Source of the DNA: Candidatus Wolfebacteria bacterium | GTDB taxonomy: Bacteria > Patescibacteriota > Minisyncoccia > UBA6257 > UBA9933 | Length of the DNA: 64,000 bases | Assembly: GCA_016214005.1 (NCBI GenBank) | Contig: JACRPK010000006.1 | Location: 17,719 to 81,718 of the forward strand | Direction: 5' to 3' | Shown here: one piece after another, positions 12,254 through 37,322 of the stretch | Position numbering within the stretch: the stretch's first letter is position 1 | Layout of the letters: each line of letters opens with the position of its first letter | Notes under the pieces: model-generated | Database searches by the model: none | Told to the model about the DNA's origin: nothing | What the model saw: only the letters and a program-made list of their open reading frames with translations | Made by a program: the position numbers and the translations under genes

Positions 12254-12259
12254 TAGATT

Positions 12260-13716: not shown

Positions 13717-13788
13717 CTTTTTTATTTTCCCGAGTATAATATAAAATAGAAACTTTGAAAAATACCAGTTCTAAGGTTAGAAACTGGT
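13705..13788 (+). promoter_or_regulatory. promoter cassette copy H (TTGACT 13713-13718, 16 nt, TATAAT 13735-13740) plus hairpin leader
   Basis: Repeat family member. Confidence 0.6.
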
Positions 13789-13824
13789 AAAAAAAAGAAA
13801 GAAAAAGAAAGAGAGGATAAGGAA

Positions 13825-15134: not shown

Positions 15135-15199
15135 ATTTAACTTGTTATGCTAAAATCAGCATTTAGCTCTTTTAAAATAAAATAAGGAGAATATCGGCA

Positions 15200-16399
15200 A
15201 TGTCGACAATTATATGGCGAAATGTTGGAGAATATACTCATTTTTTAAATTGTGTGAATGGGCACATTGTTTCTTTCAAAGTAGATAGCGCGGAAGCAAA
15301 GAAAATTATAAATAACCCCAATCATTATGAATTTGATTGCGAAGCGGAAAAAGTTTTTAGGACAACAGGCAATCAATATAATTCTAGATTATGCCGCGGA
15401 AATTTGATTAAACTTGGTTTAGAATTTAAATTTCCGACAATAGTGAATATTGAATTAAGCAGGAGATGCTCATTAAGATGCATCCATTGTTATATTGGAA
15501 ATAAAAATTTAAGTTCATCTGAATTAAGTGTTTTTGAAAAAATGGATGATTGCAATATAGACGGATTCTTAAAAAAACTTAAAGATTTGGGAGTTTTTCT
15601 TGTCGTAATAACTGGAGGAGAGCCGTTTATTAGCAAAAAACTTCAAAATTTTTTGCGGATAGCAACAGAAAAAGGATTTTTGATAGAAATATTCAGTAAT
15701 TTACAAAATTTACCCGATTGGTTTTTGCGTAATAAATATGAGGATTTTAGAATAGGTAGAATACAGACTTCAATTTATTCATCTATATTTAAAATTCACG
15801 ATGAAATAACAAAAAGTGCTGGTTCTTTAAAACGCAATCTTAAAAATCTTAATTTATTAATAAAAAATGGGTATTTTGTTGAAGTAGCTACGCCTTTAAT
15901 GAGAAAAAATATCATTTCATGGGAGAGAACTAAATTTTTCTTTGAAGAAAAGAAAATCTCTCAAAATTTTTCTTGGCCGATAGCCGATGAATATTATGGG
16001 ACAAAAAAGAAAAGCAGTTTAAATATTTTTGGTCAAAGTTTTAGTCATTTTATAGAAAAAAATTTAGATTTTCTTTTAGAAAAAAAGTGTTTTGAATCCG
16101 ACGAATATATCTGCGAAGCGGAGAAAGCTATATTCGCGGTATCTGCGACAGGCGACGTTTTCCCATGTAGTCAGATGCCATTACCAGTTGGAAATATATG
16201 CAATAAAAAAATTAAAGATATTATATATGGGAAAGATATGTCTAAAATTGGCTCATTAAAATGGAAAGATGTTTTAAAAGAAAAAGTTTTTAATTTTTGT
16301 CCTGGCATCAATTATACTGATGCAGGAGATGTTTTAATCAAACCAAAACATATGTTCGGCGCGATAGCAACTCTTAATAATAAAATGGAAAGGAGGTGA
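15200..16399 (+). CDS. radical SAM / SPASM-like enzyme with ~85-aa N-terminal extension (candidate RiPP recognition element), 399 aa
   Basis: CxxxCxxC (RRCSLRCIHCYIG) at residues ~89-96, GGEPF, and C-terminal Cys residues (CEAEKAIFAVSATGDVFPCSQMP). The extension before the core is typical of RiPP maturases. Confidence 0.7.
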   Translation: MSTIIWRNVGEYTHFLNCVNGHIVSFKVDSAEAKKIINNPNHYEFDCEAEKVFRTTGNQYNSRLCRGNLIKLGLEFKFPTIVNIELSRRCSLRCIHCYIGNKNLSSSELSVFEKMDDCNIDGFLKKLKDLGVFLVVITGGEPFISKKLQNFLRIATEKGFLIEIFSNLQNLPDWFLRNKYEDFRIGRIQTSIYSSIFKIHDEITKSAGSLKRNLKNLNLLIKNGYFVEVATPLMRKNIISWERTKFFFEEKKISQNFSWPIADEYYGTKKKSSLNIFGQSFSHFIEKNLDFLLEKKCFESDEYICEAEKAIFAVSATGDVFPCSQMPLPVGNICNKKIKDIIYGKDMSKIGSLKWKDVLKEKVFNFCPGINYTDAGDVLIKPKHMFGAIATLNNKMERR

Positions 16400-16405
16400 A
16401 TATTG

Positions 16406-16498
16406 ATGAAAAAATCAATAAAAACCGCGTGGTCATCAAGTAGGAGCAGTAAATCATCCACTTGCCCGGGATGTTCCTCGCGCAGTTCTACCCATTAA
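16406..16498 (+). CDS. small Ser/Cys-rich peptide, 30 aa (MKKSIKTAWSSSRSSKSSTCPGCSSRSSTH); candidate precursor
   Basis: AAAGGAGGTGA overlaps the rSAM stop and the ATG is 7 nt after. 12 Ser, 2 Thr, 2 Cys in 30 aa. Terminator hairpin gggagaatgatttaaacaattctccc follows. Confidence 0.4.
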   Translation: MKKSIKTAWSSSRSSKSSTCPGCSSRSSTH

Positions 16499-16551
16499 AA
16501 ATGGGATTTGGGAGAATGATTTAAACAATTCTCCCTTTTTTTATTTCATTA

Positions 16552-17508
16552 ATGAATGTTATCATTAAAATAATGAATTATTTGATAACAGAAAAGATTA
16601 AAAAAGAATATAATTTAAAGAATCCGGTTTTTCTAAAAAAATTTGAAACGCGAGGGCAGCGGCGCGTTTTTTTAATCATTGATAATAAAAATAAATATGT
16701 TATTAAAATTATTCCGAATAAAAAAGAATTAATTGCGAAATTGGAATTTATATCCAAGATCAAAAATAAAATAATCAATTTTCCTAGAATTATTGATACA
16801 AAATCAAATAAAAAATATTTTTTTCAGTCCGGTAATTTTTTTTTCTTATCGGAATTTATTGATGAAAAAGAAAATATGCCGTCACTGAATTTTTTTTCAA
16901 AATTAGGCTATGCTGTTGGAGAATTTCATAAAATTGAAACAGAAAATAGCAAAATTTTAAATTTAAATATTGGGGAAAAAATTAAAAAATTAAAAACATT
17001 ATTTTCAAAAAAGAATATAGATATTAAAATCAAAAATCAAATAATCAATTTTCTTGATTCATTCCCGCCAATATCTGGCGCGACAATTGGTCCAGTTCAT
17101 GGGGATATAAGCTATTTTAATGTTTTGGGCAAAGAAAAACTTTTTTTAATTGATTTTGATGATATATCGCGCGGTCCGATTGTTTATGATCTTGGGCAGA
17201 TGGTCGCTTTTATGTTTAATCTTATCCCTTTTGATTTTCTTAAGTTTGAGATGAAAATAAAACGTATATCGCAGCCCGTTTTTTTAATGAGCGGATTTAA
17301 AATTTTTTTAAAAAATTATTCTCGAAAAATAAAATTATCTCGCCATGATATAGAAATTTTACCAAAAATGGCTATGTTGGTGTGCTTGGAAAATGTTTAT
17401 TTAGAGTCAATTGACGGAATATTTAAATGGAATTTTAAGAGATTCAAAAAAATAGAAAAAGAACAAGATTTAATAAAACAATTATCTTTAAAATATTTTT
17501 TGAATTAA
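16552..17508 (+). CDS. aminoglycoside-phosphotransferase/protein-kinase-like fold protein, 318 aa
   Basis: Brenner-type motif VHGDISYFNV and LIDFDD (DxD) in the expected order. Confidence 0.5.
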   Translation: MNVIIKIMNYLITEKIKKEYNLKNPVFLKKFETRGQRRVFLIIDNKNKYVIKIIPNKKELIAKLEFISKIKNKIINFPRIIDTKSNKKYFFQSGNFFFLSEFIDEKENMPSLNFFSKLGYAVGEFHKIETENSKILNLNIGEKIKKLKTLFSKKNIDIKIKNQIINFLDSFPPISGATIGPVHGDISYFNVLGKEKLFLIDFDDISRGPIVYDLGQMVAFMFNLIPFDFLKFEMKIKRISQPVFLMSGFKIFLKNYSRKIKLSRHDIEILPKMAMLVCLENVYLESIDGIFKWNFKRFKKIEKEQDLIKQLSLKYFLN

Positions 17509-18849: not shown

Positions 18850-19110
18850 ATGGAAAAATTAAACACAAACACATCTTTTTATTCAATAATTATTGAAGCC
18901 TGCGAAGAGGGCGGATATTTTGCTTATTGTCCTATATTGCAAGGCTGTCATGCCGAAGGAGAGACTTATGGAGAAACAATAGATAATATTCGCGATGTTA
19001 TTAAGACTCATCTTGAATTGCGAAAAAAACATAAAGAATTGACTTCTTTTATTAAAGTTAAAAACAGATCAGATATAAATATTCAAATTCCTGTTCCAGT
19101 GGGAAATTAA
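18850..19110 (+). CDS. hicB: HicB-family antitoxin, 86 aa
   Basis: YSIIIEACEEGGYFAYCPILQGCHAEGETYGETIDNIRDVI is characteristic of HicB/UPF0150. Confidence 0.7.
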   Translation: MEKLNTNTSFYSIIIEACEEGGYFAYCPILQGCHAEGETYGETIDNIRDVIKTHLELRKKHKELTSFIKVKNRSDINIQIPVPVGN

Positions 19111-19116
19111 TTTTTT

Positions 19117-19359
19117 ATGGGCTTGAAATTTCCTGTTGTTAATTATCGCGATACAACAAAAATAGCCAAGAAACTTGGTTTTTATTTTTATCGTCAGGCT
19201 AAGGGCAGCCATGAAATTTGGAGAAGAGATATAGATGGCAGACAGACAACTATACCAAATCATGGCAGTAAAATTATTAAGCGCCGAACTTTAAAAGCAA
19301 TTTTTGAAGATTTTCAAATTTCGGCAGAGGAATTTTTTAAATTAAAAAAACATAAATAA
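19117..19359 (+). CDS. hicA: HicA-family toxin (mRNA interferase), 80 aa
   Basis: KGSHEIWRR…TTIPNHGSKIIKRRTLKAIFED matches HicA/YcfA. Confidence 0.7.
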   Translation: MGLKFPVVNYRDTTKIAKKLGFYFYRQAKGSHEIWRRDIDGRQTTIPNHGSKIIKRRTLKAIFEDFQISAEEFFKLKKHK

Positions 19360-19427
19360 CGGCATTGGGTGTTCTTTTATTTGATTCCTGTTTGACTTCC
19401 GGGTTTTGGAGGTGATAAGATAAATTT

Positions 19428-19655
19428 ATGAATACCATTACTATTCCAAAAAATTTAACCAGAGGGGCGGAGCTTGTTATAATACCCCGCGATGAGTATG
19501 AGGAATATTTGCAGTTGCGTAAAATTATTTCTGTTGTAAAAATGACTTCGGCTCAAAAACGCGATCTAGAACAGGCGAGGAAAGATTATAAACAAGAGAA
19601 ATATATTACTCTTGAGCAGCTTGAATATGAACTGGGTATTACACATAAGAAATAA
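19428..19655 (+). CDS. putative antitoxin (AbrB/MazE- or RHH-like), 75 aa
   Basis: Small ORF upstream of, and overlapping, a RelE/ParE-like gene. Preceded by the shared TA leader. Confidence 0.5.
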   Translation: MNTITIPKNLTRGAELVIIPRDEYEEYLQLRKIISVVKMTSAQKRDLEQARKDYKQEKYITLEQLEYELGITHKK

Positions 19656-19881
19656 GACAAAAAAAGAATTTTGCCGTTTTCCCATGAAAGATCGATGCTA
19701 TATTGCCGAGGCGCTTCGTGAAATAAAAGAGAACCCTTTCTTTGGCGATATTATAAAATTGGATGTAGAGAATTTTTGGCGTCGTCGCATTGGCGCTTAT
19801 CGGATTTTTTACGAAATAATTACCAGCAAAAAAATTGTTTATGTTTTTAGAATTGAACGGCGAAATTCAAAAACTTATTAG
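19612..19881 (+). CDS. RelE/ParE-family toxin (start uncertain; ATG at 19684 also possible)
   Basis: C-terminal YRIFYEIITSKKIVYVFRIERRN matches the RelE/ParE signature. Confidence 0.55.
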   Translation: MSSLNMNWVLHIRNKTKKEFCRFPMKDRCYIAEALREIKENPFFGDIIKLDVENFWRRRIGAYRIFYEIITSKKIVYVFRIERRNSKTY

Positions 19882-19888
19882 TAATATA

Positions 19889-19992
19889 ATGGAAAAATTA
19901 AACACAAACACATCTTTTTATTCAATAATTATTGAAGCCTGCGAAGAGGCGCGAAAAAAACATAAATAACGGCATTGGGTGTTCTTTTATTT
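19889..19992 (+). pseudogene. deleted hicBA remnant: first 60 nt of hicB fused to the 3' end/downstream flank of hicA
   Basis: 19889-19950 is identical to 18850-18911. 19955-19992 matches 19337-19380. The conceptual ORF is only 26 aa. Confidence 0.6.
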
Positions 19993-20063
19993 AACTCCTG
20001 TTTGCCTCCTGTTTGACTCCTGTTTGACTTCCGGGTTTTGGAGGTGATATATTAAAATAAATT

Positions 20064-20312
20064 ATGAACATTATTAAGCCAAAATTATCTTATGGTCGAC
20101 GGCTTCCTCTCCTAGTAGAAAAAGGGGAAGATAATTTTTATGTGGTTGAATGTCCACTTTTTGAAGGTTGTTACAGCCAGGGCAAAACCCTTGACGAGGC
20201 TTTGCATAATATTCGCGAGGTTATAGGGATAATTCTTGAAGAGAAGATTGCCAGAGAAATTCTAAAAAATTATAATCCCGAAGAAATAAGCCTTCATACT
20301 ATTGCGGTATAA
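20064..20312 (+). CDS. hicB: HicB-family antitoxin, 82 aa
   Basis: FYVVECPLFEGCYSQGKTLDEALHNIREVI. Confidence 0.7.
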   Translation: MNIIKPKLSYGRRLPLLVEKGEDNFYVVECPLFEGCYSQGKTLDEALHNIREVIGIILEEKIAREILKNYNPEEISLHTIAV

Positions 20313-20314
20313 AT

Positions 20315-20533
20315 ATGATAAAATTACCGATTATTTCTGGCCGTCAACTTATTAAACTTTTATCTAAATTAGGTTATCGCGAGGTTCGCCAGCGCGGCAG
20401 CCATATTCGTTTATCTTGTTTAAATAGAAAATCAGTAACTGTGCCGAATTACAAAGCTATAGATAGATCTTTGCTTAGAAAAATATTGAGAGATTCTGAA
20501 TTGAGCATAGATGAATTTTTAAATCTTTTTTAA
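20315..20533 (+). CDS. hicA: HicA-family toxin, 72 aa
   Basis: RGSHIRL…VTVPNYKAIDRSLLRKILRD. Terminator follows at 20575-20616. Confidence 0.7.
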   Translation: MIKLPIISGRQLIKLLSKLGYREVRQRGSHIRLSCLNRKSVTVPNYKAIDRSLLRKILRDSELSIDEFLNLF

Positions 20534-21982: not shown

Positions 21983-22888
21983 ATGGAAAGTTTACAGGCT
22001 TTTTTTGCAATTTTTTCGGAGATTTGGCAACTTGGGAACAGGTTTTGCCGGTGGGCGATTGCGATAATCGCTTTCTGGCCGATACTCATAATGGCTTCGG
22101 CGTTTTACGGAACGTCCGGAATCATTGCTATTGTTTCCATGGTGCCGATAGTGGCAATTGTTCTTTTGACAGCTGTTCATGCAGAAACCTATAAAAAGGT
22201 TGAACGCGAAGAAAATGGGCAGAATGTCGTTCGGCAGGTGCCGAATGTGAATATTTGGCCATTGGGATTTTTCGCTATCGCGGTTTATTCGGAAAAAGTC
22301 CGCGAGGCGATTAAAACGCTCACTGGAATTGCGGCTCTTGAGCTGTGTCTTGGCATTTATTTCGCGCTTGTTCCAGTTCAAAACGATCGCGATCTAATAC
22401 CGGTAGTGGTGCTTATTGTCATCGCTATGATCTTTATTTGGATCAGCGCGGAAGGAAAGACCCGAAGCCATTCGCTTATTTTTTTGGCTGTCGTTCTTAA
22501 AATTATTACGGTCATCTTTTTTATGGGTGGTCGCGATGAAATAAGAATAGATATGCCAAAAACTGCATTTGCTTCTGCGCCTTCTTTTTGGAATACTCCT
22601 CTTTGCGCTAATGGAAAAATTAGCATAGACATAAAAGAGGAGAACACGAAAGAAATTCAGATTAATTTCCGAAATGATTGTATTTCGGAAGTTAAACTTC
22701 CTCCGAATTTCAAGTATATACTTGACCCCGACAAAGATGTTCGGATTAAGTTCCTTGATGGTTCGGAGTATGTTGATGGGCCGGGGAAGATGGCCTGGCA
22801 AGGATTGCATAAAGGATTTTTTAAGATTCGCGGTGTTTCTGAATCCGGGATCTTAAAAATATCCTTGGAATCCCTGCAAAACAGTTAA
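21983..22888 (+). CDS. hypothetical integral membrane protein, 301 aa
   Basis: Several hydrophobic helices. RBS AAAGAGAGGATAG. Confidence 0.45.
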   Translation: MESLQAFFAIFSEIWQLGNRFCRWAIAIIAFWPILIMASAFYGTSGIIAIVSMVPIVAIVLLTAVHAETYKKVEREENGQNVVRQVPNVNIWPLGFFAIAVYSEKVREAIKTLTGIAALELCLGIYFALVPVQNDRDLIPVVVLIVIAMIFIWISAEGKTRSHSLIFLAVVLKIITVIFFMGGRDEIRIDMPKTAFASAPSFWNTPLCANGKISIDIKEENTKEIQINFRNDCISEVKLPPNFKYILDPDKDVRIKFLDGSEYVDGPGKMAWQGLHKGFFKIRGVSESGILKISLESLQNS

Positions 22889-22986
22889 ATATTCCGGATA
22901 TGGGGTTTTCCCCGTATCCGGATTTTTTATTCAGATTTTTTTATTTTCGCTTGACACTATTTATTAAATATCAGAAAATTATATTA

Positions 22987-23352
22987 ATGAATAAATTTAT
23001 TTTAACTATTATAGCGGCTTTATTTATTGTTGGCGTTAATAATGTTTTTGCTGTTAGCGGTGGAATCACTTCCGGTAGCGGGCTTACCAACCCTCTTGGA
23101 GCAGGAGCCACTATCTGGACTCTTCTTGACGGCTTAATTGGCTTTCTTATCAAAGTCGGATCTTTTATCTTGCCGATTATGGTTTTATATGGCGGTTATT
23201 TGATTTTGTCGGCTGGCGATGATCCGAAAAAAGTTGAAAGCGGGAGAGAAGTGATTCTCTGGGCTGTTGTCGGATTTATTATTATCTTGTGTTCATGGGG
23301 AGTTATTTATATAATTGGAGATGTGTTGGGAATCAGTATTCCGACGCAATAA
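22987..23352 (+). CDS. VirB2/TrbC-like small 2-TM secreted protein (paralog 1 of 5)
   Basis: Signal peptide, then two hydrophobic helices separated by a charged loop (SAGDDPKKVESGRE). Pattern shared with 23769, 24135, 25324 and 25960. Confidence 0.4.
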   Translation: MNKFILTIIAALFIVGVNNVFAVSGGITSGSGLTNPLGAGATIWTLLDGLIGFLIKVGSFILPIMVLYGGYLILSAGDDPKKVESGREVILWAVVGFIIILCSWGVIYIIGDVLGISIPTQ

Positions 23353-23356
23353 AATT

Positions 23357-23767
23357 ATGAAAAAACAAAAAATTAAAAAATCAAAAATGACATTGGATAA
23401 ATTGGCGTTGATAATAAAGCAAGAGATTGACACCAAGGTGTCCAAAGACGACTTAAAAAATGAATTACAAAGATTTGCCACCAAAGACGACTTAAAAAAT
23501 GAATTACAAAGATTTGTCACCAAAGATGATCTTAAAAACTTTAAAATAGAATTTAAGTCTGAAGTTGCCGATGAAATTAAATCAACGATTAAAGAAGAAC
23601 TCACTGATAATATAAATAAATTATTTACCAAAGCTGATATTATCATTTCTAAATTGGAAAAAAAAGAACAGGAAGATTTGATGCACACACAAGCTCATAG
23701 AAGAATCAATGACACTTTGGAAATTCACGATAAAAAAATAAAAAATTTAGAAATAAAAATAAATTAA
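23357..23767 (+). CDS. hypothetical coiled-coil protein with internal 14-aa tandem repeat (KDDLKNELQRFxTK)
   Basis: 42-bp DNA direct repeat x2.5 at ~23440-23545. Lys/Glu-rich. Confidence 0.45.
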   Translation: MKKQKIKKSKMTLDKLALIIKQEIDTKVSKDDLKNELQRFATKDDLKNELQRFVTKDDLKNFKIEFKSEVADEIKSTIKEELTDNINKLFTKADIIISKLEKKEQEDLMHTQAHRRINDTLEIHDKKIKNLEIKIN

Positions 23768-23768
23768 A

Positions 23769-24110
23769 ATGAATTTAATTAAAAAATCTGCGTTAATTTT
23801 ATCAATTTTATTTTTTAGTTTTTTAATTTTGAATTTTGCTTTTGCTCAGGCGGGTTCTTCTCCTGTTAAAAGCGCGAGCGATGTTTATAATATTTTAGGG
23901 AAAATCGTGAGCTGGATGTATACGATATTTTTTATTGTTTCAGTGTTTTTTGTTTTATTGGCGGCTTTTAAATTTTTAACGGCCGAAGACGATCCTGAAA
24001 AAATAAAAGGCGCCACAAAATCAATTATGTGGGCGGCGGTGGCGGTTGTTGTGGCTTTGCTTTCCGTTGGTTTCGGAAAAATTATTGAAAGTTTTATTAC
24101 AACACCATAA
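23769..24110 (+). CDS. VirB2/TrbC-like small 2-TM secreted protein (paralog 2)
   Basis: Signal peptide AFA|QA, TM1, loop TAEDDPEKIKGATKS, TM2. Confidence 0.4.
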   Translation: MNLIKKSALILSILFFSFLILNFAFAQAGSSPVKSASDVYNILGKIVSWMYTIFFIVSVFFVLLAAFKFLTAEDDPEKIKGATKSIMWAAVAVVVALLSVGFGKIIESFITTP

Positions 24111-24134
24111 TTTTTTATAATTAATAATTTTATT

Positions 24135-24518
24135 ATGTTAAATATTGCGCAGGCGGCATCTCAAATTCCTGATATTTCTCAATACGGCGGACCAAAAGCG
24201 GTTGGCCCAACGAATGTTGGCGGAATTGTTGATATTCTTGTAAAAGTGATGCAGTGGACTTATTCAATATTTTTTGTTGTGGCGGTTCTTTTTATTATTT
24301 TGGCGGCTTATGAATATCTTACTGGCGCTGAAGATCCGGAAAGAATTCGCGAAGCCCATAAAAGGATTATTTGGGCAGGAGTGGCGATAGCTGTGGCAAT
24401 TCTTGCTTTAAGCTTTAATTTGCTTGTGCAGAATTTTTTGGGCGCAAGCGGGGGAGGCGGCGGATCTAGTGGTGGGGGAGCTGGCGGAACAAATTATTCT
24501 GGCGGAGGGACTCCATAA
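24135..24518 (+). CDS. VirB2/TrbC-like small 2-TM protein (paralog 3) with Gly-rich C-terminal tail
   Basis: Same core (…YLTGAEDPERIREAHKRIIWAGVA…) plus a GGGGGSSGGGAGG tail. Confidence 0.4.
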   Translation: MLNIAQAASQIPDISQYGGPKAVGPTNVGGIVDILVKVMQWTYSIFFVVAVLFIILAAYEYLTGAEDPERIREAHKRIIWAGVAIAVAILALSFNLLVQNFLGASGGGGGSSGGGAGGTNYSGGGTP

Positions 24519-24584
24519 TCAGAAAAGTATTTAATCAAAAAAGAAAACCGCGAGTTGTTATTGAAAACAAACCCGCGGTGTTTT

Positions 24585-25127
24585 TTATTTGGAGGAGGCC
24601 GACAAGAAAGTCGCCCAATGCACTTTCTTCTCCTTAAAGTAGTGGATTGCGCCGGTAACGTGGAAAATCCAGCGAGCTTTTTCTTGTCCCTTAATGTTAA
24701 AAACAGCCGTGTATTCTCCGGGAAGGAGATAGTCTTCTTGCTCTTTTTCCGAATCAAGGGTGTAGCTTGTGGAAAGGCCAGTACTGTTGTTGATTATAAC
24801 AGCGGTAACGGTTTCTTTCGTTGAATTGACCACAATTCCTTTGAATCCCATTGATATGCCATTTTCTGTCTTTGTCATTGTGGGCTGAGCATATAGTTTG
24901 GCCATGGCCGTGTCAAAGCCATCTTTTTTTTGGCGAAGACTCTCTTTTTCGTTTTGAATTTTCGCCATTTCCTCGGCATCCGAAAAACCGCTATGATCGC
25001 CGCTGTTGTATTGCTCTTCACTGCCGTAGCGAGCTTTACCGCCGACATAAGCAATCCCCAGGGCGCCGGCGCAAGCGTTGAGGCTAACGACCGCAAGTAT
25101 CAAAAACAGAAATGCAAATCTTCTCAT
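24585..25127 (-). CDS. hypothetical lipoprotein, 180 aa
   Basis: Signal + lipobox LNAC|AG. Higher GC than the surroundings. Operator palindrome 28 bp upstream of its start. Confidence 0.5.
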   Translation of the reverse strand: MRRFAFLFLILAVVSLNACAGALGIAYVGGKARYGSEEQYNSGDHSGFSDAEEMAKIQNEKESLRQKKDGFDTAMAKLYAQPTMTKTENGISMGFKGIVVNSTKETVTAVIINNSTGLSTSYTLDSEKEQEDYLLPGEYTAVFNIKGQEKARWIFHVTGAIHYFKEKKVHWATFLSASSK

Positions 25128-25323
25128 ATATCCTCCTTAAATTCCTTAAATGTTGCTATCACTAGTGATAGCGTTTATTATTGAGTTTTCAAAAAAATTT
25201 AGAGTTCTTTTTTTATGTCGCGATGTTTCGTTCCCTAAATTAAACTATAAAAAATATAGCATACCTTAATGCAAAAGTCAATAGTTGCAAAGGATAATCA
25301 AATTAGTTAAAATAATATAATCA

Positions 25324-25899
25324 ATGATTAATAAATTTTCATTAATTGCATTGCTTATTATTGGTTTATTGCCGTCTTTTGTTCTTGCCATTTCTGCCGG
25401 TGATATTTTAGCGCCAGCCGATGTGGCTCCTCAAAATATCGGCGGTATTCAGGCCGGAAAAGTTGAGGTGAGTAGTGTTAATCAACTTTTCTCTTATTTA
25501 GAACTGCTTTTAAGATGGGTTTTTGGAATATTTTTTGCCGCTTCAGTCATTCTTATAATTTGGGCCGGCTATTATTATCTTATTGGAGGCGAAGACAGCG
25601 AAAATATCAATATTGCAAAAAGAAGAATTACTTGGGCGGCAGTGGCGATCGTTGTGGCGATTTTATCCGGCACTTTTGTTTTGCTGATTTCTAATTTTTT
25701 AGGAGCTCAAGGCGGAAGTTTTGGAACTGGCAACTCGGGCGGTTCTGGTGGCGCAGGAGGATCTTCTGACTATCCTGGGGGACCATATCAATCGCAGAGT
25801 CAATATTGGCAGCAATATCAATATACCTGCAAAGCAGGCGACACCTTGCCGTGTTGCAGCGGCCATGGAGCGGGTGACGTTGTCACTTGCTGGAAATAA
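25324..25899 (+). CDS. VirB2/TrbC-like 2-TM protein (paralog 4) with Gly-rich and Cys-rich C-terminal tail
   Basis: Core …YYLIGGEDSENINIAKRRITWAAVA…. Tail ends with CKAGDTLPCCSGHGAGDVVTCWK. Confidence 0.4.
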   Translation: MINKFSLIALLIIGLLPSFVLAISAGDILAPADVAPQNIGGIQAGKVEVSSVNQLFSYLELLLRWVFGIFFAASVILIIWAGYYYLIGGEDSENINIAKRRITWAAVAIVVAILSGTFVLLISNFLGAQGGSFGTGNSGGSGGAGGSSDYPGGPYQSQSQYWQQYQYTCKAGDTLPCCSGHGAGDVVTCWK

Positions 25900-25959
25900 T
25901 TTTATATGTTAGATTAAATTAAATTAAAAAGGTCGCAAAAATTATAATTAAATTTAGAA

Positions 25960-26298
25960 ATGACTAAAAAAATCGCGATTGCCTTGTTGGGGTTGTCTCC
26001 GCTTTTAGTTTTTGCCCAACCGAGTGTTCCGACCGTTACCGGATTATCAAGTTACGCCGGTATTATTACCACTATTGATACATTGGCTAATTGGATGCTT
26101 GGAATTCTTGTTGCGGTGGCGGCAATTTTTTATCTTTATGCAGGTTATCTCTATTTAATGGCTTCTGGAAATGAAGAACAATTTGCAGCCGCAAAAAGCT
26201 ATATAATTTACGCCACAGTGGCCGTTGCCGTTGGTTTGCTTTCAAAAACAATTACTGCTCTTTTGCAGAGTTTTCTTGGAACGGCAATTACTCCTTAA
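25960..26298 (+). CDS. VirB2/TrbC-like small 2-TM secreted protein (paralog 5)
   Basis: Signal VFA|QP, TM1, loop ASGNEEQFAAAKS, TM2. Confidence 0.4.
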   Translation: MTKKIAIALLGLSPLLVFAQPSVPTVTGLSSYAGIITTIDTLANWMLGILVAVAAIFYLYAGYLYLMASGNEEQFAAAKSYIIYATVAVAVGLLSKTITALLQSFLGTAITP

Positions 26299-26551
26299 TT
26301 TATTAAAATATAAATATAAAAGCCGCTGCTGATAAAATCTTTGGCAGAGGCTTTTATATTTATTATGGGGCTTGTATTTTTATTTTAATTGTTTATAATA
26401 TATTAGAGTCTTAGTTGTGATTTCCGGATCAAGGATTTATTTACGGGAAGGCAACAGCGCTTTGGCTCTTGGGTCAAAGTTGAGCCTGCCCACTTGGCGA
26501 AAGCCGGGATAATCCAACAGCTAAGGCTCATTAAGTTTTATATTTTAAATT

Positions 26552-27757: not shown

Positions 27758-27831
27758 TGGCTGCGGGACAGGGAATCGAACCCCAATTTTCTGGTTCAGA
27801 GCCAGACGTGCTACCATTACACCATCCCGCA
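27758..27831 (-). tRNA. tRNA-Gln (anticodon CUG)
   Basis: Reverse complement folds as a cloverleaf. Acceptor stem TGCGGGA/TCCCGCA, anticodon stem TCTGG/CCAGA with loop CTCTGAA, T-loop TTCGATT, 3' GCCA. Confidence 0.8.
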
Positions 27832-27882
27832 ATATATTTAATTTGCTAACGAAAAAATTATAATCTATAATAATTTTAAATG

Positions 27883-29103
27883 CCAATGAATAAATTGGAA
27901 ATTGAAAAAGAGCTTCTTGCGCCGGCAAATGAAATTTCAATTATTAAGCTTGTGGATTCTTTGATTGATCATGCTTATGAATCGCGGGCTTCGGATATCC
28001 ATATTGATCCGGCTAGCGATAAGGTTACGGTTAGGCTTAGGATTGACGGCGTGATGCACGGCGCTTTTATTTTGCCGAAAGAAATTCAATCGGAAGTCAT
28101 CACTCGGCTTAAAGTTTTGTCTGGTCTTCGCACCGATGAGCACCAAATCGCCCAAGACGGCCGTTTTAAATTTATTGCCGAAGACAAAAAAGAATTTGAC
28201 ATAAGAATTTCCATAGTCCCAACTTATTATGAGGAAAATGCGGTTTTAAGGCTTTTGGTTGAGCAAGGACAGGCCCACAATCTTGATACTATTGGATTTT
28301 CCGAAAGAGATTTAAATATTGTTAAAAGCGCGATGCAAAAGCCTTACGGGATGATTTTGGCGACTGGCCCGACTGGGAGCGGGAAAACTACCACTCTTTA
28401 TACAATTTTAAAAATTCTTAATACCGATGATGTGGAAATTATCACGATTGAAGATCCGATTGAATATTCGCTTGAAAAAACCACTCAGATTCAGGTAAAT
28501 AATCAAACTAGTTTGACTTTTGCCAAAGGTCTTCGTTCAATTTTGAGGCAGGATCCGAATATTATTATGGTTGGTGAAATTCGTGATGAGGAAACAGCGA
28601 AGATTGCCGTTAACGCCGCTTTGACTGGTCATCTTTTGCTTTCCACTTTGCACACCAACGACGCGCCAACGGCTTTGCCTCGTTTGATTGATATGGGGGT
28701 GGAGCCGTTTTTAATCGTTTCAACCGTTAATGTTGTTATTGCCCAGCGTTTAGTAAGACAAATTTGTTCTGATTGCAAAATTGAGAAAAAATATTCTTTA
28801 AGCGCGTTGAAAACTTTAGGCGCTCATCTTCCGCCGGAATTCTTGTCGGATAATCAAAATTTTTTTGTCGGCGCGGGATGCAAAACTTGCGGCAATAGCG
28901 GCTATTTGGGAAGAGTCCCCATTCATGAAGTTTTTGAAATAACAGATGCCATCCGCGAAGCGATTGTTTCAAGAGTAGGAGCTCAAGAGATAAAAGAAAT
29001 AGCCAAAAAAGAAGGCATGACCACGATGTTTGAAGATGGCTTTAAAAAAGTGATAGCGGGTATAACCACCATGGAAGAGATATTAAGAGTTATCCATGAA
29101 TAA
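27883..29103 (+). CDS. pilB: type IV pilus assembly ATPase PilB/GspE family (short form)
   Basis: Walker A GPTGSGKTTTLY, Asp box and His box region, and a tetracysteine (CSDC…CKTCGNSGY). Confidence 0.85.
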   Translation, partial: PMNKLEIEKELLAPANEISIIKLVDSLIDHAYESRASDIHIDPASDKVTVRLRIDGVMHGAFILPKEIQSEVITRLKVLSGLRTDEHQIAQDGRFKFIAEDKKEFDIRISIVPTYYEENAVLRLLVEQGQAHNLDTIGFSERDLNIVKSAMQKPYGMILATGPTGSGKTTTLYTILKILNTDDVEIITIEDPIEYSLEKTTQIQVNNQTSLTFAKGLRSILRQDPNIIMVGEIRDEETAKIAVNAALTGHLLLSTLHTNDAPTALPRLIDMGVEPFLIVSTVNVVIAQRLVRQICSDCKIEKKYSLSALKTLGAHLPPEFLSDNQNFFVGAGCKTCGNSGYLGRVPIHEVFEITDAIREAIVSRVGAQEIKEIAKKEGMTTMFEDGFKKVIAGITTMEEILRVIHE

Positions 29104-30202
29104 TAATCATAAGGTTTCTTTATTGCAATCAGTCGCGAGAAAATTTGTTATTTTTTTTACACGCGTGCCGCTTTCGGAAAAAATTCTTTTTGCCAAGCAT
29201 TTGTCTATGATGGTCAATGCCGGTATGACCGAAGTTGAAAGCATTCGTTTGATAAGAAAACAGATAAAAAGCCGCGGTTTTGGAAAAATTTTGGATAAAA
29301 TTATCGCTGATTTGGAAAGCGGATTGTTTTTGTCCGTGTCCCTAAAACAATTTCCTCGCGCTTTCGGAGAAATTTTTATTAATTTGATAGAAATCGGTGA
29401 AATTACTGGCACGCTTTCTCAAAATTTAAATTTTCTTTCGGTGGAGCTTAAAAAATCTCAACAACTTCGTTCAAAAGTCCGTTCGGCTTTGATTTACCCG
29501 ATTGTCATATTGGCGGCGACTTTGGGAGTCGGCGGAATGCTGATATTTTTTGTTTTGCCGAAAATTCTTCCGGTTTTTTACAGCTTGCGCATTGAATTGC
29601 CGGTTGAAACAAAAATTTTAGTGGCTGCCAGCAATTTTCTTTTGCATTATTATCTTTGGGTTATTTTGGGATTTTTTGTTTTTTTTATTCTTATGGCTGG
29701 TTTATTAAAAATTCCTTTTATAAGATTTTATTATCATCGGCTGATTTTGGCATTGCCGATTATCGGAAAAATTGCGATTGCTTATAATATGGCCAATACC
29801 ACAAGAACGCTCGGTATTCTTTTAAAAAGCGGGATAAAAATCGTTGAGGCGATTTTAATTAACGCCAATATAACAAGCAACGATGTTTATAAAAAATCTT
29901 TTTATTTGGTAGCCGAAGAAATTAAAAAAGGAGAATCGTTTTATAAATATTTTGAAAATAATTCGAAAATTTTTCCTCCGACCATCACGCGGATGATTGA
30001 AGTCGGTGAAAATACGGGCAAGCTTGAAGAAAATCTTTTTTATTTGGCGGATTTTTATGAAAATGAAGTTGACGAAATTACCAAAGACCTTTCGAGTATT
30101 TTGGAGCCGGTTTTGCTTGTGGTAATGGGATCTCTGGTGGGTTTTGTGGTAGTTTCAATTATAAAACCAATTTATGAAGTTAGTCGAAGCATCACAAGAT
30201 AA
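29096..30202 (+). CDS. pilC: type IV pilus platform protein PilC/GspF family
   Basis: Two GspF-type repeats, polytopic membrane protein. Overlaps pilB stop. Confidence 0.8.
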   Translation: MNNNHKVSLLQSVARKFVIFFTRVPLSEKILFAKHLSMMVNAGMTEVESIRLIRKQIKSRGFGKILDKIIADLESGLFLSVSLKQFPRAFGEIFINLIEIGEITGTLSQNLNFLSVELKKSQQLRSKVRSALIYPIVILAATLGVGGMLIFFVLPKILPVFYSLRIELPVETKILVAASNFLLHYYLWVILGFFVFFILMAGLLKIPFIRFYYHRLILALPIIGKIAIAYNMANTTRTLGILLKSGIKIVEAILINANITSNDVYKKSFYLVAEEIKKGESFYKYFENNSKIFPPTITRMIEVGENTGKLEENLFYLADFYENEVDEITKDLSSILEPVLLVVMGSLVGFVVVSIIKPIYEVSRSITR

Positions 30203-30626
30203 CGCAAAAGGCCTGACGATGATTGAAATTATTGTTGCGATGGCAATTCTTTCCGTAATTGCCGGATTGGGTTTTTGGGTAAGCTTGGAATTTTATAAAA
30301 CATACAATCTTGATTCTGAATTTAATATTTTAACAAGCGCTTTAAGAAAAGTTAGAAATTTAAGCATGACTAATTTTAATGAATCAGCGCATGGAATTTA
30401 TATTGAGCCGAACCGATATGTTATTTTCCAGGGATCGTCTTATGTCGCCCGTAATCAGTCTTTTGATGAAATTTATGAACCGCTTAGCGTTAATTTTTCG
30501 GGAATTGGAGAAGCGGTTTTTAGTCAATTGAGCGGTGATTCAAGCGCTTCCGGAACGATTAAAATAAATTATGAAACAAAGAATCGGCAAGTTTTTATAA
30601 ATTATGATGGAAAAATTGATTGGTAA
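30174..30626 (+). CDS. prepilin-type (pseudopilin/minor pilin) protein
   Basis: Class III signal KG|LTMIEIIVAMAIL with Glu at +5. Confidence 0.6.
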   Translation: MKLVEASQDNAKGLTMIEIIVAMAILSVIAGLGFWVSLEFYKTYNLDSEFNILTSALRKVRNLSMTNFNESAHGIYIEPNRYVIFQGSSYVARNQSFDEIYEPLSVNFSGIGEAVFSQLSGDSSASGTIKINYETKNRQVFINYDGKIDW

Positions 30627-31974
30627 AAAAAATTGCGGGCAAAGCGTTTTGGAAACTCTTGTAGCTTTGGCGATTTTGGCTATCAGCGTTTTAAGCGGGT
30701 TTATTTTAATTTATAATAGCCAGTCTTTTTCAGTTGACGTTGATTTAGGCCAGCAAGCTATTTATTTGGCTCAAAAAGGATTGGAAACAGCTAGATATTC
30801 GGCAAAAAATAATTTTAATGATTTGGTTGGCAGCTCATCAATAACTGGAAATTTTACCCAAGAAACAATAATTGAAAATATTGACGCTTATTCAAAAAAA
30901 ATTATTAGCCGAACAAGTTGGAAAACAGATCTTTTGAGGCCGCAAAAAATTGAATTGACAACTTTGGTTACTAGCAGATCAAATATTATTGGATCCGGCG
31001 GCGATGCTGGGGGCAGCGCTCCGTTCGGCGATTGGAAAAATCCAAAAACTTTGGGAAGCATTGATTTGGGAGCCGGCGAATCGGCCACCGATTTAGACGT
31101 TAAAAATAAAATGGTTTATCTTACGGCCGAAGCTTCGGACAAGAAAAAATCTGATTTTTTTATTGTTAACGCCACTGACGGTCAAAATCCGTTTATTGTT
31201 TCTAGTCTTAATGTCGGAGACGGATTGAAAGGTGTCGATGTCGCCGGCAATTACGCTTATGTGGTCGGCAAAGATGATGATAAAGAATTTATTGTTATTG
31301 ATGTAAGCAATCAATCGGCGCCAATTGAAGTCGCTTCTCTTAATTTGTCCGGCAGCGCTGACGCTTTAACAATATTTTATTGGAATGGTTATGTTTATGT
31401 TGGCCGGGCCAGCGGCTCTTCGCAGGAATTTTTAATTATTGATGTTTCTAATCCTTTGGCGCCGAGCCTTGTTTCCGGTTTGTCGGGTGTTGGCAACGAA
31501 ATTAATGATATTTATGTTTTGAATAACCGCGTTTATTTGGGAACCGAAGATTCTAGCAGGGGAATGATTGTTATTAATGTAGCTAGTTCAACTTCACCTT
31601 CGGTTTTAGGATCAATTGATGTTGGCGATCATGTTTATGGCATTTATCCCAGAAGTGAAAATCAAGTATTGGTAGGCGAAAAAACAAAATTTTACATCGT
31701 TAACGCTTCCAGTACTTCTAAAATGGCGATTTTGGGTTCAGCTTCGATTGGAAGTAAAACCCGAGATATCGTTTCCTCTGGTTCTTTGGCTTTTTTGGCA
31801 ACAGAAGATTCTAATAAAGAATTTCAAGTTTATGATATTTCCAGTTCGACTAGACCTTCTTTTTGGAGTTCGTTTAATTTCCCTCAAATCGCGACGGGAA
31901 TTGATTATGAAGATAATATTGTTTATGTTTCGGTCCGCAGCAATGACGCGTTAAGAATTATTACTTCGCAATAA
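30604..31974 (+). CDS. prepilin-type N-terminus fused to LVIVD-repeat beta-propeller domain (pilus-associated adhesin-like), 456 aa
   Basis: G|QSVLETLVALAIL. Repeated FIVIDVSN/FLIIDVSNP/MIVINVAS units match LVIVD repeats. Confidence 0.6.
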   Translation: MMEKLIGKKNCGQSVLETLVALAILAISVLSGFILIYNSQSFSVDVDLGQQAIYLAQKGLETARYSAKNNFNDLVGSSSITGNFTQETIIENIDAYSKKIISRTSWKTDLLRPQKIELTTLVTSRSNIIGSGGDAGGSAPFGDWKNPKTLGSIDLGAGESATDLDVKNKMVYLTAEASDKKKSDFFIVNATDGQNPFIVSSLNVGDGLKGVDVAGNYAYVVGKDDDKEFIVIDVSNQSAPIEVASLNLSGSADALTIFYWNGYVYVGRASGSSQEFLIIDVSNPLAPSLVSGLSGVGNEINDIYVLNNRVYLGTEDSSRGMIVINVASSTSPSVLGSIDVGDHVYGIYPRSENQVLVGEKTKFYIVNASSTSKMAILGSASIGSKTRDIVSSGSLAFLATEDSNKEFQVYDISSSTRPSFWSSFNFPQIATGIDYEDNIVYVSVRSNDALRIITSQ

Positions 31975-31976
31975 AT

Positions 31977-32465
31977 ATGAAAAATCAAAAAGCTTTTACT
32001 TTAATTGAAACAATTATTTACGCTGTTTTAGTTTCTTTAATTGGCGGGTTTTCAATTTTTGTTCTTTATCAAATTATTGACAGCGGTGATCGCTTAAAAG
32101 CGAAAATTGACGTTGAGGGAGAAGCGAATTTTATTTTGCAAAAAGTTAATTGGGCTTTAAACGGAGCGACAGCCGTTAATCAGCCGGCAGCTGGCGCTAC
32201 TTCAACGATTCTATCAATCAATAAAAATAATTTTTCTTCCAATCCGATTGTTTTTGATTTAAATGAAGGCAATATTCGTTTGGCAAAAGGCGGAGGCGCT
32301 GCTTCGTTTTTAAACAATCAGAATATTTCAGTTGGCCAATTAGTTTTTGAACATTTGGCGGCCAGCGGAGGATCATCGGAGGCTATTAGGGCAACACTTT
32401 CCGTAAATTCTAAAATTTTCAATTATTCCAAAACCATTGAAATGCTTTATTATTTAAGAAATTAA
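31977..32465 (+). CDS. prepilin-type minor pilin
   Basis: KA|FTLIETIIYAVLVSL N-terminus. Confidence 0.55.
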   Translation: MKNQKAFTLIETIIYAVLVSLIGGFSIFVLYQIIDSGDRLKAKIDVEGEANFILQKVNWALNGATAVNQPAAGATSTILSINKNNFSSNPIVFDLNEGNIRLAKGGGAASFLNNQNISVGQLVFEHLAASGGSSEAIRATLSVNSKIFNYSKTIEMLYYLRN

Positions 32466-32475
32466 TATTTATAAA

Positions 32476-32868
32476 ATGAAAACAAATTTTCAAAAAGGTT
32501 ATATTGCTCTTACTTCGGCTGTGATTATTTCGGCTTTGATTATGATAATTGCTTTGACTTTGAGTTCGGGTTCTTTTTCCGGCCGTTTTGACATTTTGGG
32601 AGTGGAATTTAAGAAAATCAGCCGCGCCCTAGCCGAAGCTTGCGCTGAAACAGCTCTTCTAAAATTGGCGCAAAACAGCTCTTACTCTGGAGATGAAAAT
32701 ATTCAAATTGGTGATAAACAATGTTCAATTTTAGCGATTGAATCAGCAGGCGGACAAAAAATAATAAAAACAAAAGCGAATTTTCAAAATTTTATCACCA
32801 ACTTAAAAATAGCAGTGTCAATTTCAAACTTAGCAGTTGTTTATTGGGAAGAAGTGGCGAATTTTTAA
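32476..32868 (+). CDS. hypothetical pilus-associated protein (N-terminal TM)
   Basis: Location within the pilin operon. Hydrophobic N-terminus. Confidence 0.4.
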   Translation: MKTNFQKGYIALTSAVIISALIMIIALTLSSGSFSGRFDILGVEFKKISRALAEACAETALLKLAQNSSYSGDENIQIGDKQCSILAIESAGGQKIIKTKANFQNFITNLKIAVSISNLAVVYWEEVANF

Positions 32869-32929
32869 ATTATATAATATAATTAAATAAATTTGAAAAG
32901 GTCGAGATTGAAAATTATTAAATTTTGCA

Positions 32930-35739: not shown

Positions 35740-37322
<1,583 letters not shown>

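Follow-up and report, generated by a model that had tools for sequence, protein, structure and literature searches.

An array of five PF18895-family (T4SS_pilin) paralogues in a Candidatus Wolfebacteria genome

Five open reading frames (ORFs) on the + strand of a 64-kb stretch of Candidatus Wolfebacteria DNA (the window, in which position 1 is the first letter) lie within 22987-26298, and each of them passes the Pfam family PF18895 (T4SS_pilin). They are most readily understood as old, diverged paralogues that would encode VirB2-like subunits of the monoderm-type T4SS of Patescibacteria, a reading to which we give a probability of roughly 0.7. A large part of bacterial diversity belongs to the Patescibacteria, which live attached to other microbes; the Wolfebacteria are taken here to belong to the Paceibacteria of GTDB. 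In the one species of the group that has been tested, the T4SS and the pilin series are essential (PMC10633639, PMC11665869). According to a 2025 survey, 383 Patescibacteria assemblies hold 441 arrays of 2-11 VirB2-like pilin genes, either in tandem or split by a non-pilin gene, with a mean identity of 25%, and these arrays are commonest in Microgenomatia and Saccharimonadia (PMC12102498). Since arrays of this kind have been described, the Wolfebacteria locus is one more example of them, and as they are already catalogued it adds little to the general picture.

Composition and conservation of the array

The array and its immediate surroundings comprise the following features:

21983-22888, + strand: possible associated gene, 301 aa, immediately before copy 1; read by eye, the protein begins with several hydrophobic segments and has a soluble C-terminal domain
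22893-22922, + strand: terminator-like hairpin of 13 pairs (8 G-C), then a T run
22951-22979, + strand: promoter-like site TTGACA-17-GAAAAT, a consensus match only, ending 8 nt before the ATG of copy 1
22987-23352, + strand: pilin copy 1, 121 aa; signal peptide, two transmembrane helices, loop GDDPKK, short tail
23357-23767, + strand: non-pilin coiled-coil ORF, 136 aa, inside the array between copies 1 and 2
23769-24110, + strand: pilin copy 2 (HZC33_01270), 113 aa; signal peptide, two transmembrane helices, loop EDDPEK, tailless
24135-24518, + strand: pilin copy 3, 127 aa; no signal peptide, two transmembrane helices, loop AEDPER, Gly-rich tail
24585-25127, - strand: predicted lipoprotein, 180 aa, N-terminus ...VVSLNAC; convergent with copy 3
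25324-25899, + strand: pilin copy 4 (HZC33_01285), 191 aa; signal peptide, two transmembrane helices, loop GEDSEN, long tail
25960-26298, + strand: pilin copy 5, 112 aa; signal peptide, two transmembrane helices, loop SGNEEQ, tailless
26310-26363, + strand: inverted repeat just past copy 5, with 20-nt arms that are 95% complementary and 14 nt between them

The whole-protein scores of copies 1-5 against PF18895 are 33.3, 37.9, 42.4, 35.1 and 37.4 bits, and the gathering score of the family is 26.6 bits; that five adjoining ORFs should all exceed it is far beyond chance. Precomputed Pfam matches on identical NCBI proteins concur with this assignment, and these identical proteins come from Candidatus Wolfebacteria (Patescibacteria). 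The family is a large one, with 50,569 cluster representatives of the PF18895 type at E <= 1e-3, and its (D/E)DPEK loop motif is conserved, the Glu being nearly invariant. By hydropathy, a signal-like N-terminal segment and two transmembrane helices are present in copies 1, 2, 4 and 5; the AlphaFold2 model of copy 2 (mean pLDDT 82) has helices at residues 2-27, 36-71 and 76-111, which correspond to the signal helix and a two-helix hairpin. The preliminary description of this DNA had proposed VirB2/TrbC-like pilin paralogues with two transmembrane segments and variable tails, suggestive of surface variation, and this agrees with both the PF18895 assignment and the Patescibacteria literature. 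The layout that it gave for all of them (signal peptide, transmembrane helix, acidic loop, transmembrane helix) holds, on the same hydropathy, for four copies and fails for copy 3, which has no signal peptide.

Copies 2-5 are 20-26% identical to copy 1, a range that fits the mean of 25% given in PMC12102498. Five genes with two interrupting non-pilin genes, at 23357-23767 (+) and 24585-25127 (-), also come under the array definition found there, and the locus has in common with the surveyed arrays the PF18895 family, the phylum, the copy number (five, in a range of 2-11) and the interruption by non-pilin genes. It differs from the known Patescibacteria arrays in having no T4SS machinery gene within 64 kb and one copy without a signal peptide, and it belongs to a Wolfebacteria genome and not to the Microgenomatia or Saccharimonadia, where arrays are commonest.

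Orthologues of the array copies occur at 46-74% identity in a second Wolfebacteria genome, which indicates that the array ORFs are real genes. Copy 1 is 59% identical to L088:9309-9683, copy 2 is 66% identical to P0019, and copy 5 is 74% identical to L003:10620-10958, which follows the relative's orthologue of copy 4. The non-pilin genes have counterparts as well: the coiled-coil ORF is 35% identical to L088:9694-9999, likewise placed between the orthologues of copies 1 and 2, and the lipoprotein is 35% identical over 204 residues to L088:11324-11935 (-), in the equivalent position. Gene order is therefore kept in the second genome for copy 1, the coiled-coil ORF, copy 2, copy 3 and the lipoprotein, and for copies 4 and 5. 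The coiled-coil ORF, which holds a 39-nt tandem repeat at 23442-23538, has no Pfam family at its cut-off. The lipoprotein gene, whose lipobox was read by eye from the sequence, has no Pfam family either and is called as a gene on Logan contig L001.

Regarding transcription, the hairpin at 22893-22922 lies just past the stop of the 301-aa ORF (22888), where an alternative start of copy 1 at 22900 would overlap it, and marks the left boundary of the array transcription unit. The inverted repeat at 26310-26363, within which a terminator scan gave a weaker match (26326-26347), is likely to terminate the array and mark its right boundary. There are probably two transcription units, copies 1-3 and copies 4-5, with the conserved lipoprotein gene between them on the other strand. 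Promoter-like sites number 24 in the region and 22.8 are expected from shuffles; as this is no excess, the site at 22951-22979 counts as weak evidence. It is uncertain that the 301-aa gene belongs to the pilin system. Its protein matches no Pfam or NCBIfam family, and the terminator-like hairpin stands between the gene and the array; there is a weak match (E = 2e-4 in a single comparison, over 49 residues) to L088:8347-9222, a 291-aa protein that is likewise encoded upstream of the relative's copy 1 orthologue.

Variable tails and the copy without a signal peptide

Gly-rich tails are carried by copies 3 and 4, in accordance with the two poly-Gly tails first noted, while the Cys-rich tail, which had been listed apart from these, sits on the Gly-rich copy 4 and not on a third protein. 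In this copy a Gly/Ser linker (residues 129-153) is followed by a Gln/Tyr-rich stretch and then by a Cys-rich mini-domain (161-191, nt 25804-25896) with C169, C177, C178 and C189. AlphaFold2 places helices at 4-24, 52-87 and 92-125 and gives the linker a pLDDT below 50, and the residue blocks of 161-190 average 88-95, the last strand being at 186-190. The C-terminal Cys-rich end, with 6 Cys each, is retained in the orthologues P0002 and P0003 (46% identity), and the tail Cys counts of copy 4 and its two full-length orthologues are all even (4, 6, 6). Even numbers, together with the pLDDT of 88-95, would fit an oxidising location outside the cell. The Gly linker and the predicted Cys-rich C-terminal mini-domain, conserved in orthologues, are a modest new point and are not mentioned in the passages of PMC12102498 consulted. 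They show that PF18895 subunits can bear modular C-terminal additions, such as a small Cys-rich domain kept among orthologues.

Copy 3, with its Gly-rich tail at residues 103-127 (nt 24441-24515), is in frame with copy 2, and the gap between the two consists of TAA and 8 codons. Its core is 61% identical to L088:10795-11238, a relative's protein that has a signal peptide and no Gly tail. This signal-less copy in frame behind copy 2 is a second modest new point.

Relation to known pilins and to T4SS machinery

Like the canonical VirB2/TrbC/TrwL pilins (Gram-negative MPF_T, PF04956), the array proteins are small and combine an N-terminal leader, predicted to be cleaved, with two hydrophobic helices that a short charged loop joins; both of their ends would likewise lie outside the cell. 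They differ from these in their long variable C-terminal tails and in gene context: the canonical plasmid virB2 genes that were fetched directly precede virB3, whereas the array genes are not beside virB3 or virB4. Homology to canonical VirB2/TrbC is weak. Against PF04956 (gathering score 27.9 bits), copy 2 scores 24.9 bits (E = 2.4e-5), copy 3 14.6 and copy 4 16.7, and copies 1 and 5 have no match. A search with the TrbC/VirB2 model thus reaches three copies below threshold and none above the cut-off, while PF18895 is passed by all five. The NCBIfam model NF045849 matches every copy over 63-74 residues of its 80 positions, with 29.8, 39.4, 30.9, 23.6 and 24.4 bits for copies 1-5 (E = 3.6e-10 to 3e-5), all below its curated cut-off of 40 bits. 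This model describes Mbov_0395 / MMCAP2_0565, a pilin-like conjugal transfer protein of Mycoplasma integrative conjugative elements and so a parallel from a single-membrane cell; there it is a single gene on a mobile element, in contrast to the chromosomal paralogue arrays considered here.

A profile of 25 family members found no solved pilin among PDB sequences, its hhalign comparison with seven annotated plasmid VirB2/TrwL/TrbC-family pilins was not significant (probability 0.5%, E = 0.12), and tblastn against 72,556 plasmids returned nothing. With the copy 4 model, Foldseek listed 8dfu at rank 21 (target-normalised TM-score 0.54), among unrelated helical hairpins. This entry belongs to the archaeal Ced/Ted pili (Aeropyrum pernix), whose VirB2-type helical hairpin pilin comes from an organism without an outer membrane; the Foldseek match is not significant (E = 6.3), and fold searches did not tell conjugative pilins and unrelated helical hairpins apart. 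As direct similarity is weak, the term VirB2-like rests mainly on the PF18895 assignment and the architecture, and the sequence evidence behind the "VirB2" label is weak.

As regards gene organization, tandem VirB2 paralogues in the T4SS of Bartonella and Anaplasma, cited in PMC12102498, are also diverged side-by-side copies for which variation of an exposed surface has been proposed. These are diderm intracellular animal pathogens with complete VirB systems, while the present organism has a single membrane and its partner is presumably another microbe. The closest known systems are the VirB2-like pilin arrays of Patescibacteria, among them the TM7x region TM7x_00050-00135 and the array of Southlakia epibionticum ML1, where the pilin series lies inside the T4SS cluster SEML1_0006-0019 and is essential (PMC10633639). 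The literature consulted yielded no observation of a pilus built of PF18895 proteins.

A T4SS as a system would call for the VirB4 ATPase and the membrane components VirB3, VirB6 and VirB8 near the pilin genes. In the scanned ORFs of the window, which took in nearly all those of at least 100 aa that are not nested in a larger gene of a different frame or strand, none of the VirB4, VirB3, VirB6, VirB8 and VirB1 families was found. Nor were these families found when the larger ORFs that flank four related arrays were scanned, or in precomputed Pfam tables for the remaining arrays. Arrays can therefore exist in Wolfebacteria far from any T4SS machinery gene, at the scale of the 64-kb window. In PMC12102498, VirB2-like pilins are recorded together with VirB4 in 1,948 assemblies, in only 1,135 of which they lie near virB4. 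The partial ATPase gene at the left edge of the window, 22.7 kb from the array, does have the P-loop that had been called VirB4/HerA-like. Assignment as a VirB4 was dropped, since its full-length orthologue (80% identical) resembles a coupling protein, matching TrwB_AAD_bind at 41.7 bits and also TraG-D_C; the product is, by this orthology, a putative soluble VirD4-like coupling-protein ATPase.

On the pilin reading, the following mechanism may be proposed. The four copies that begin with a signal-like segment would be Sec substrates, cleaved after an Ala-x-Ala-like site. The mature protein, according to hydropathy and AlphaFold2, is a hairpin of two hydrophobic helices, and a cleaved leader followed by two helices would leave both ends outside and the D-P-E-K loop in the cytoplasm. 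A T4SS powered by VirB4, with its genes elsewhere in the genome, would then pull the subunits from the membrane and stack them into a pilus or short stalk, a step suggested by canonical VirB2 biology and by the essential S. epibionticum pilin array. The variable tails, which range from none through a Gly-rich thread to a Gly linker with a small, possibly disulfide-bonded Cys-rich domain, would lie on the outer face, where they could make the surface of each paralogue distinct, plausibly so that different host cells can be contacted.

Alternative readings

Several observations sit uneasily with the pilin reading, namely that no T4SS machinery was found near the arrays, that canonical similarity is weak and that copy 3 has no signal peptide. 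The alternative that best survives, although unlikely, is that the hairpin is a membrane anchor and not a filament subunit, with tails or domains displayed on the cell surface, possibly together with the conserved solute-binding protein whose gene adjoins such arrays in relatives; "T4SS pilin" would then be a misnomer for at least some members. Consistent with this, the ORFs checked in the 10 kb around the fetched arrays and in the window included no detected virB4, and similarity to canonical VirB2 is not significant. Moreover, an SBP_bac_1 gene, with proteins 40-53% identical, is found directly upstream of the array in five independent lineages, an SLT_3 lysozyme-like domain is fused to one member of the family (L005:7730-8854), and other members consist of 2-8 hairpin units in a single polypeptide. 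Most members, however, copies 1, 2 and 5 among them, are tailless and would have nothing to display. The S. epibionticum pilin series lies within a T4SS cluster and is essential like the machinery genes, the survey places a pilin gene near virB4 in 1,135 of 1,948 assemblies, and the Pfam TrbC and NCBIfam conjugal pilin-like models match consistently, albeit below threshold. It is worth adding that a tight filament of the VirB2 type could hardly accommodate a 60-residue tail or an entire lysozyme-like domain.

A further reading, which we consider improbable, sees the PF18895 arrays as a separate surface module only loosely tied to the T4SS. The hairpins would form or anchor a structure for the uptake of host-derived compounds, the tails would act as host-contact elements, and the Wolfebacteria locus would be what a rearrangement has left of the module, no longer linked to a solute-binding protein gene. 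The upstream solute-binding protein is strongly conserved and membrane-anchored, and the tail elements in question are the copy 4 mini-domain and the lysozyme-like domains of relatives. The conserved solute-binding protein gene of the relatives' arrays is absent from the 64-kb window. Its recurrence beside those arrays is a third modest new point and offers a concrete and cheap lead on the role of the array proteins.

It is very doubtful that the array proteins belong, as accessory components, to the type IV pilus machinery nearby instead of to a T4SS. The type IV pilus genes do begin at 27880, 1.6 kb downstream of the array, and lie 6-10 kb from the orthologues of copies 4 and 5 in the related Wolfebacteria genome, but these two genomes are close relatives and hence do not provide independent evidence. 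The adjacency reported in the preliminary description is real at this locus and not general, being confined to the copy 4/5 pair in two Wolfebacteria genomes and seen at no other fetched locus; PilB and PilC homologues are absent from all the other array loci fetched. In addition, none of the five copies matches the N-terminal methylation motif (PF07963), which is present in the window's true type IV pilins.

Equally hard to credit is the bacteriocin-like alternative raised at the outset, here taken in a wider form in which the genes would encode small peptides for secretion, or proteins that damage membranes (class II bacteriocins, holins), and an upstream RiPP-like cluster would act on the Cys-rich tail: although the proteins are small, hydrophobic and Gly-rich, and radical SAM/SPASM, ATP-grasp, C39-like and M16 peptidase genes lie ~5-22 kb upstream, no bacteriocin or holin family is among the reported matches (Pfam to E = 1, NCBIfam to 0.1, weak matches being listed in part), the leaders end by eye in Ala-x-Ala-like sites and not in a double glycine, the Cys-rich tail persists in the relative's copy 4 orthologue, around which no radical SAM gene lies within 10 kb, the window's single C39-like gene is ~20 kb from the array, and toxin-antitoxin and other genes separate the RiPP-like cluster from the array.

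The pilin array and its family

The array of five paralogous genes announced in the preliminary description was found, as ORFs of the forward strand, exactly where that description had placed it. The sequencing run SRR12113407 contains this sequence. Its elements are, in window coordinates:

22893-22922: strong terminator-like hairpin, 5' of copy 1
22987-23352, +: pilin copy 1 (PF18895)
23357-23767, +: coiled-coil ORF, non-pilin, interrupting the array
23769-24110, +: pilin copy 2 (PF18895); identical NCBI entry HZC33_01270, Candidatus Wolfebacteria bacterium
24135-24518, +: pilin copy 3 (PF18895)
24585-25127, - (opposite to the pilins): predicted lipoprotein, non-pilin, interrupting the array
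25324-25899, +: pilin copy 4 (PF18895); identical NCBI entry HZC33_01285, Candidatus Wolfebacteria bacterium
25960-26298, +: pilin copy 5 (PF18895)
26310-26363: inverted repeat with 20-nt arms, 3' of copy 5

All five copies match the Pfam family PF18895 (T4SS_pilin) with 33.3-42.4 bits, against a gathering score of 26.6, and the other copies are 20-26% identical to copy 1, taken as the reference. A repeat search of the region detected no DNA-level repeats common to the five copies, and a tandem-repeat search reported none in the stretches coding for the Gly-rich tails; recent amplification or cassette-type gene conversion is therefore rejected, and the copies are old paralogues. According to hydropathy, copies 1, 2, 4 and 5 begin with a signal-like segment and continue with two transmembrane helices, while copy 3 has the two helices only, so that the layout initially attributed to all five (signal peptide, helix, loop, helix) holds for four of them. 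Conserved in the loop between the helices is a motif of the (D/E)-D-P-E-K type; its Glu hardly varies among 25 family members. A promoter-like site is also present 5' of copy 1; such matches are no commoner than in shuffled sequence and are thus of little weight. Within the coiled-coil ORF, a 39-nt tandem repeat (23442-23538; 2.5 copies, 94% matches) codes for repeated KDDLKNELQRF units.

A second Wolfebacteria genome, GCA_016219775.1, has its array divided over two contigs, L088 and L003, in the following order:

L088: solute-binding protein gene; Cys-containing pilin; three genes of unknown function
L088, continued: copy 1 orthologue (59% identity); coiled-coil orthologue (35%); copy 2 orthologue (66%)
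L088, continued: extra pilin; copy 3 orthologue (61%); lipoprotein orthologue (35%), opposite strand
L003: copy 4 orthologue (46%) and copy 5 orthologue (74%)

Since this order recurs, both the coiled-coil ORF and the lipoprotein gene count as conserved companions of the array. A scan of species-representative genomes with a narrow pilin alignment returned four loci.

The five copies are firm members of PF18895; what ties them to canonical pilins is weak. With the Pfam TrbC model the score reaches at best 24.9 bits, under its cut-off of 27.9; a 25-sequence profile found no pilin among PDB sequences, hhalign against seven plasmid-derived annotated VirB2, TrwL and TrbC-family pilins was not significant (probability 0.5%), and tblastn against plasmids gave no match. 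For this reason the genes are not filed in the canonical TrbC/VirB2 family; they are PF18895 members that probably function in a VirB2-like manner. There is one independent hint of conjugation systems from cells with a single membrane: all five copies match, just below the cut-off (best 39.4 versus 40 bits), the NCBIfam model NF045849, which describes a pilin-like protein for conjugal transfer in integrative conjugative elements of Mycoplasma. The preliminary description, which saw VirB2-like pilin paralogues with a varying surface, is right in its main reading. The best-supported explanation has a probability of about 0.7: the proteins would be pilin-type subunits of a Patescibacteria type IV secretion system (T4SS), held in the membrane as a store and assembled by machinery encoded elsewhere, and the paralogues and their tails would vary the exposed surface. 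A bacteriocin or holin nature of these PF18895 members is, by comparison, highly improbable.

The phenomenon has already been published, so the window locus is another case of known arrays and adds modest extra detail only. The study of Quinonero-Coronel et al. (2025; PMC12102498) describes VirB2-like pilins, detected with PF18895, PF04956 and CONJScan pilin profiles, in 1,948 VirB4-holding Patescibacteria assemblies, of which 1,135 have a pilin gene near virB4; it also reports 441 arrays of 2-11 pilin genes in 383 assemblies, and its description of them fits the present locus point by point. Moreover, a predicted pilin series, located within the T4SS cluster of Southlakia epibionticum, proved essential for the epibiotic growth of this species (Wang et al., 2023; PMC10633639); the role of the T4SS is stated as unknown (PMC11665869).

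Tail variation and the irregular copy 3

Family members differ in their C-terminal extension, which is absent in some, exceeds 60 residues in others, and is in most cases Gly-, Ser- or Pro-rich. Gly-rich tails are found in copies 3 and 4. The Cys-rich tail that had been ascribed to a further protein does exist, but it is the end of the Gly-rich tail of copy 4 (C169, C177, C178, C189). The plan of this tail, consisting of a Gly-rich linker, a Gln/Tyr-rich stretch and a Cys-rich end terminating in C-W-K or C-F-R, is kept in both full-length orthologues, with 4, 6 and 6 cysteines in copy 4 and the two orthologues, respectively. AlphaFold2 predicts the copy 4 linker to be disordered (pLDDT below 50) and the last 30 residues to fold compactly into a small domain that contains two short strands (pLDDT 88-95); Foldseek gave no significant match for the whole copy 4 model. 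If the signal peptide is cleaved off and two membrane helices follow it, the tail would lie outside the cell, where the even cysteine counts fit disulfide bonds. The radical SAM/SPASM cluster upstream was considered as a maturase of the Cys-rich tail and rejected, because an orthologue retains the tail without such genes nearby. At L005, an array locus of another relative, a single ORF (7730-8854) joins a PF18895 pilin domain to a C-terminal SLT_3 lysozyme-like domain, so the pilin hairpin can carry a whole enzyme domain.

The L088 orthologue of the leaderless copy 3 starts with an ordinary signal peptide and lacks the Gly tail. Copy 3 shares the reading frame of copy 2, from which it is separated only by a TAA and eight codons (FFIINNFI; window 24108-24137), and these codons together with the start of copy 3 (MLNIAQA|AS) look, as far as sequence can tell, like a signal-peptide remnant. 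An exhaustive profile search (50,569 cluster representatives at E <= 1e-3) returned, among its best matches, many single polypeptides with 2-8 tandem PF18895 hairpin units (database proteins P0036-P0045 and others); the sequences of P0037, P0040 and P0042 were read, and the second hairpin unit of P0037 has no full signal peptide. These proteins could be genuine polyproteins or artefactual fusions from gene calling, and their layout is topologically sound because every unit begins and ends outside the cell. Copy 3 may thus be a gene in decay, a protein that inserts without a leader, or the second half of a protein that was once fused or that arises by read-through. It is also a candidate chimera, composed of an extra pilin since lost and of the copy 3 orthologue.

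Machinery, neighbours and a possible membrane-anchor role

No member of the VirB4, VirB3, VirB6, VirB8 or VirB1 families was found by a Pfam scan of nearly all window ORFs of at least 100 aa not contained in a larger gene (other frame or strand) and of several ORFs below that size, and the search for T4SS components detected no machinery gene within the 64 kb. At the left edge lies one partial gene:

1-213, -: ATPase, 70 residues visible, P-loop GKSGVGKTK

It had been noted for a VirB4/HerA-like P-loop, but it is not a VirB4: the 80%-identical full-length metagenome orthologue (485 aa) through which it was identified matches TrwB_AAD_bind, TraG-D_C, DUF87 and T4SS-DNA_transf. The gene is one of the soluble VirD4-like (VirD4/TrwB-like) coupling-protein homologues, of which PMC12102498 counts 5,713 in 2,918 genomes, mostly far from virB4. 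Its orthologues (about 485-514 aa) occur in at least 518 metagenome stretches. It is separated from the array by 22.7 kb, with the RiPP-like cluster and toxin-antitoxin genes in between, and is not linked to it, since none of 80 loci of this ATPase has a PF18895 gene within 10 kb.

In five independent lineages, a gene for an SBP_bac_1 solute-binding protein is situated directly upstream of the PF18895 array, in all cases outside the window:

L088 (second Wolfebacteria genome): 5151-6440
L004 (array locus of a relative): 7813-9165
L005 (array locus of a relative): 6206-7501
L007 (array locus of a relative): 7400-8719
L089 (array locus of a relative): 7794-9107

The protein is membrane-anchored, has about 430 aa and is 40-53% identical across several classes (Wolfebacteria, Saccharibacteria and other Patescibacteria). 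The preceding gene is usually gyrA (dnaE in L088), and the first pilin after the SBP_bac_1 gene has N-terminal Cys pairs. The gene is absent from the 64-kb window, and PMC12102498 makes no mention of such a link.

The strongest competitor of the pilin reading is that the hairpin serves as a membrane anchor only, displaying tails or domains. This is favoured by the conserved solute-binding protein neighbour, by the pilin-lysozyme fusion, by the multi-unit polypeptides and by the lack of virB4 among the ORFs checked near the array loci fetched; we nevertheless consider it rather unlikely. Far less probable is an accessory role in type IV pili. The closeness to type IV pilus genes remarked on at first holds for the copy 4/5 pair in two related Wolfebacteria genomes (in L003 the distance is 6-10 kb), and not for the other array loci fetched, all of which lack PilB and PilC homologues.

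Other features of the window

The type IV pilus genes of the window form two separate sets (27880-33385 and 37840-42497), which include a PilB-like ATPase, a pair of PilC-like proteins (29096-30202 and 39710-40966) and, in addition, seven proteins that carry an N-terminal methylation motif. Among these seven is a pilin-like protein of 456 aa containing an LVIVD repeat. The gene at 37460 codes for a response regulator. The RiPP-like biosynthetic cluster (1157-17508) and the RNA genes are as follows:

1157-2434: M16 peptidase
2780-3424: C39-like peptidase
3752-4399: GNAT acetyltransferase
7311-7622 and 7635-8444: radical SAM/SPASM gene split in two ORFs
11135-12253: MvdD-type ATP-grasp enzyme
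15200-16399: second radical SAM/SPASM gene
16552-17508: APH-type kinase
27758-27831, -: tRNA-Gln
35730-37327: 16S rRNA gene, alone (the window gave no 23S rRNA match)
56246-56624: RNase P RNA

Small ORF pairs at 18850-20533 resemble HicB/HicA-type and RelE-type toxin-antitoxin modules; the first ORF (18850), the sole one of these pairs scanned, matches HicB_lk_antitox with 26.0 bits, just under the cut-off of 27, and its first residues are duplicated in the ORF at 19835-19969. Finally, the gene at 44598-48665 encodes a protein of 1,355 aa, which may be a surface protein; the only domains recognised in it, near the C-terminus, are fibronectin type III / purple acid phosphatase N-terminal-like.
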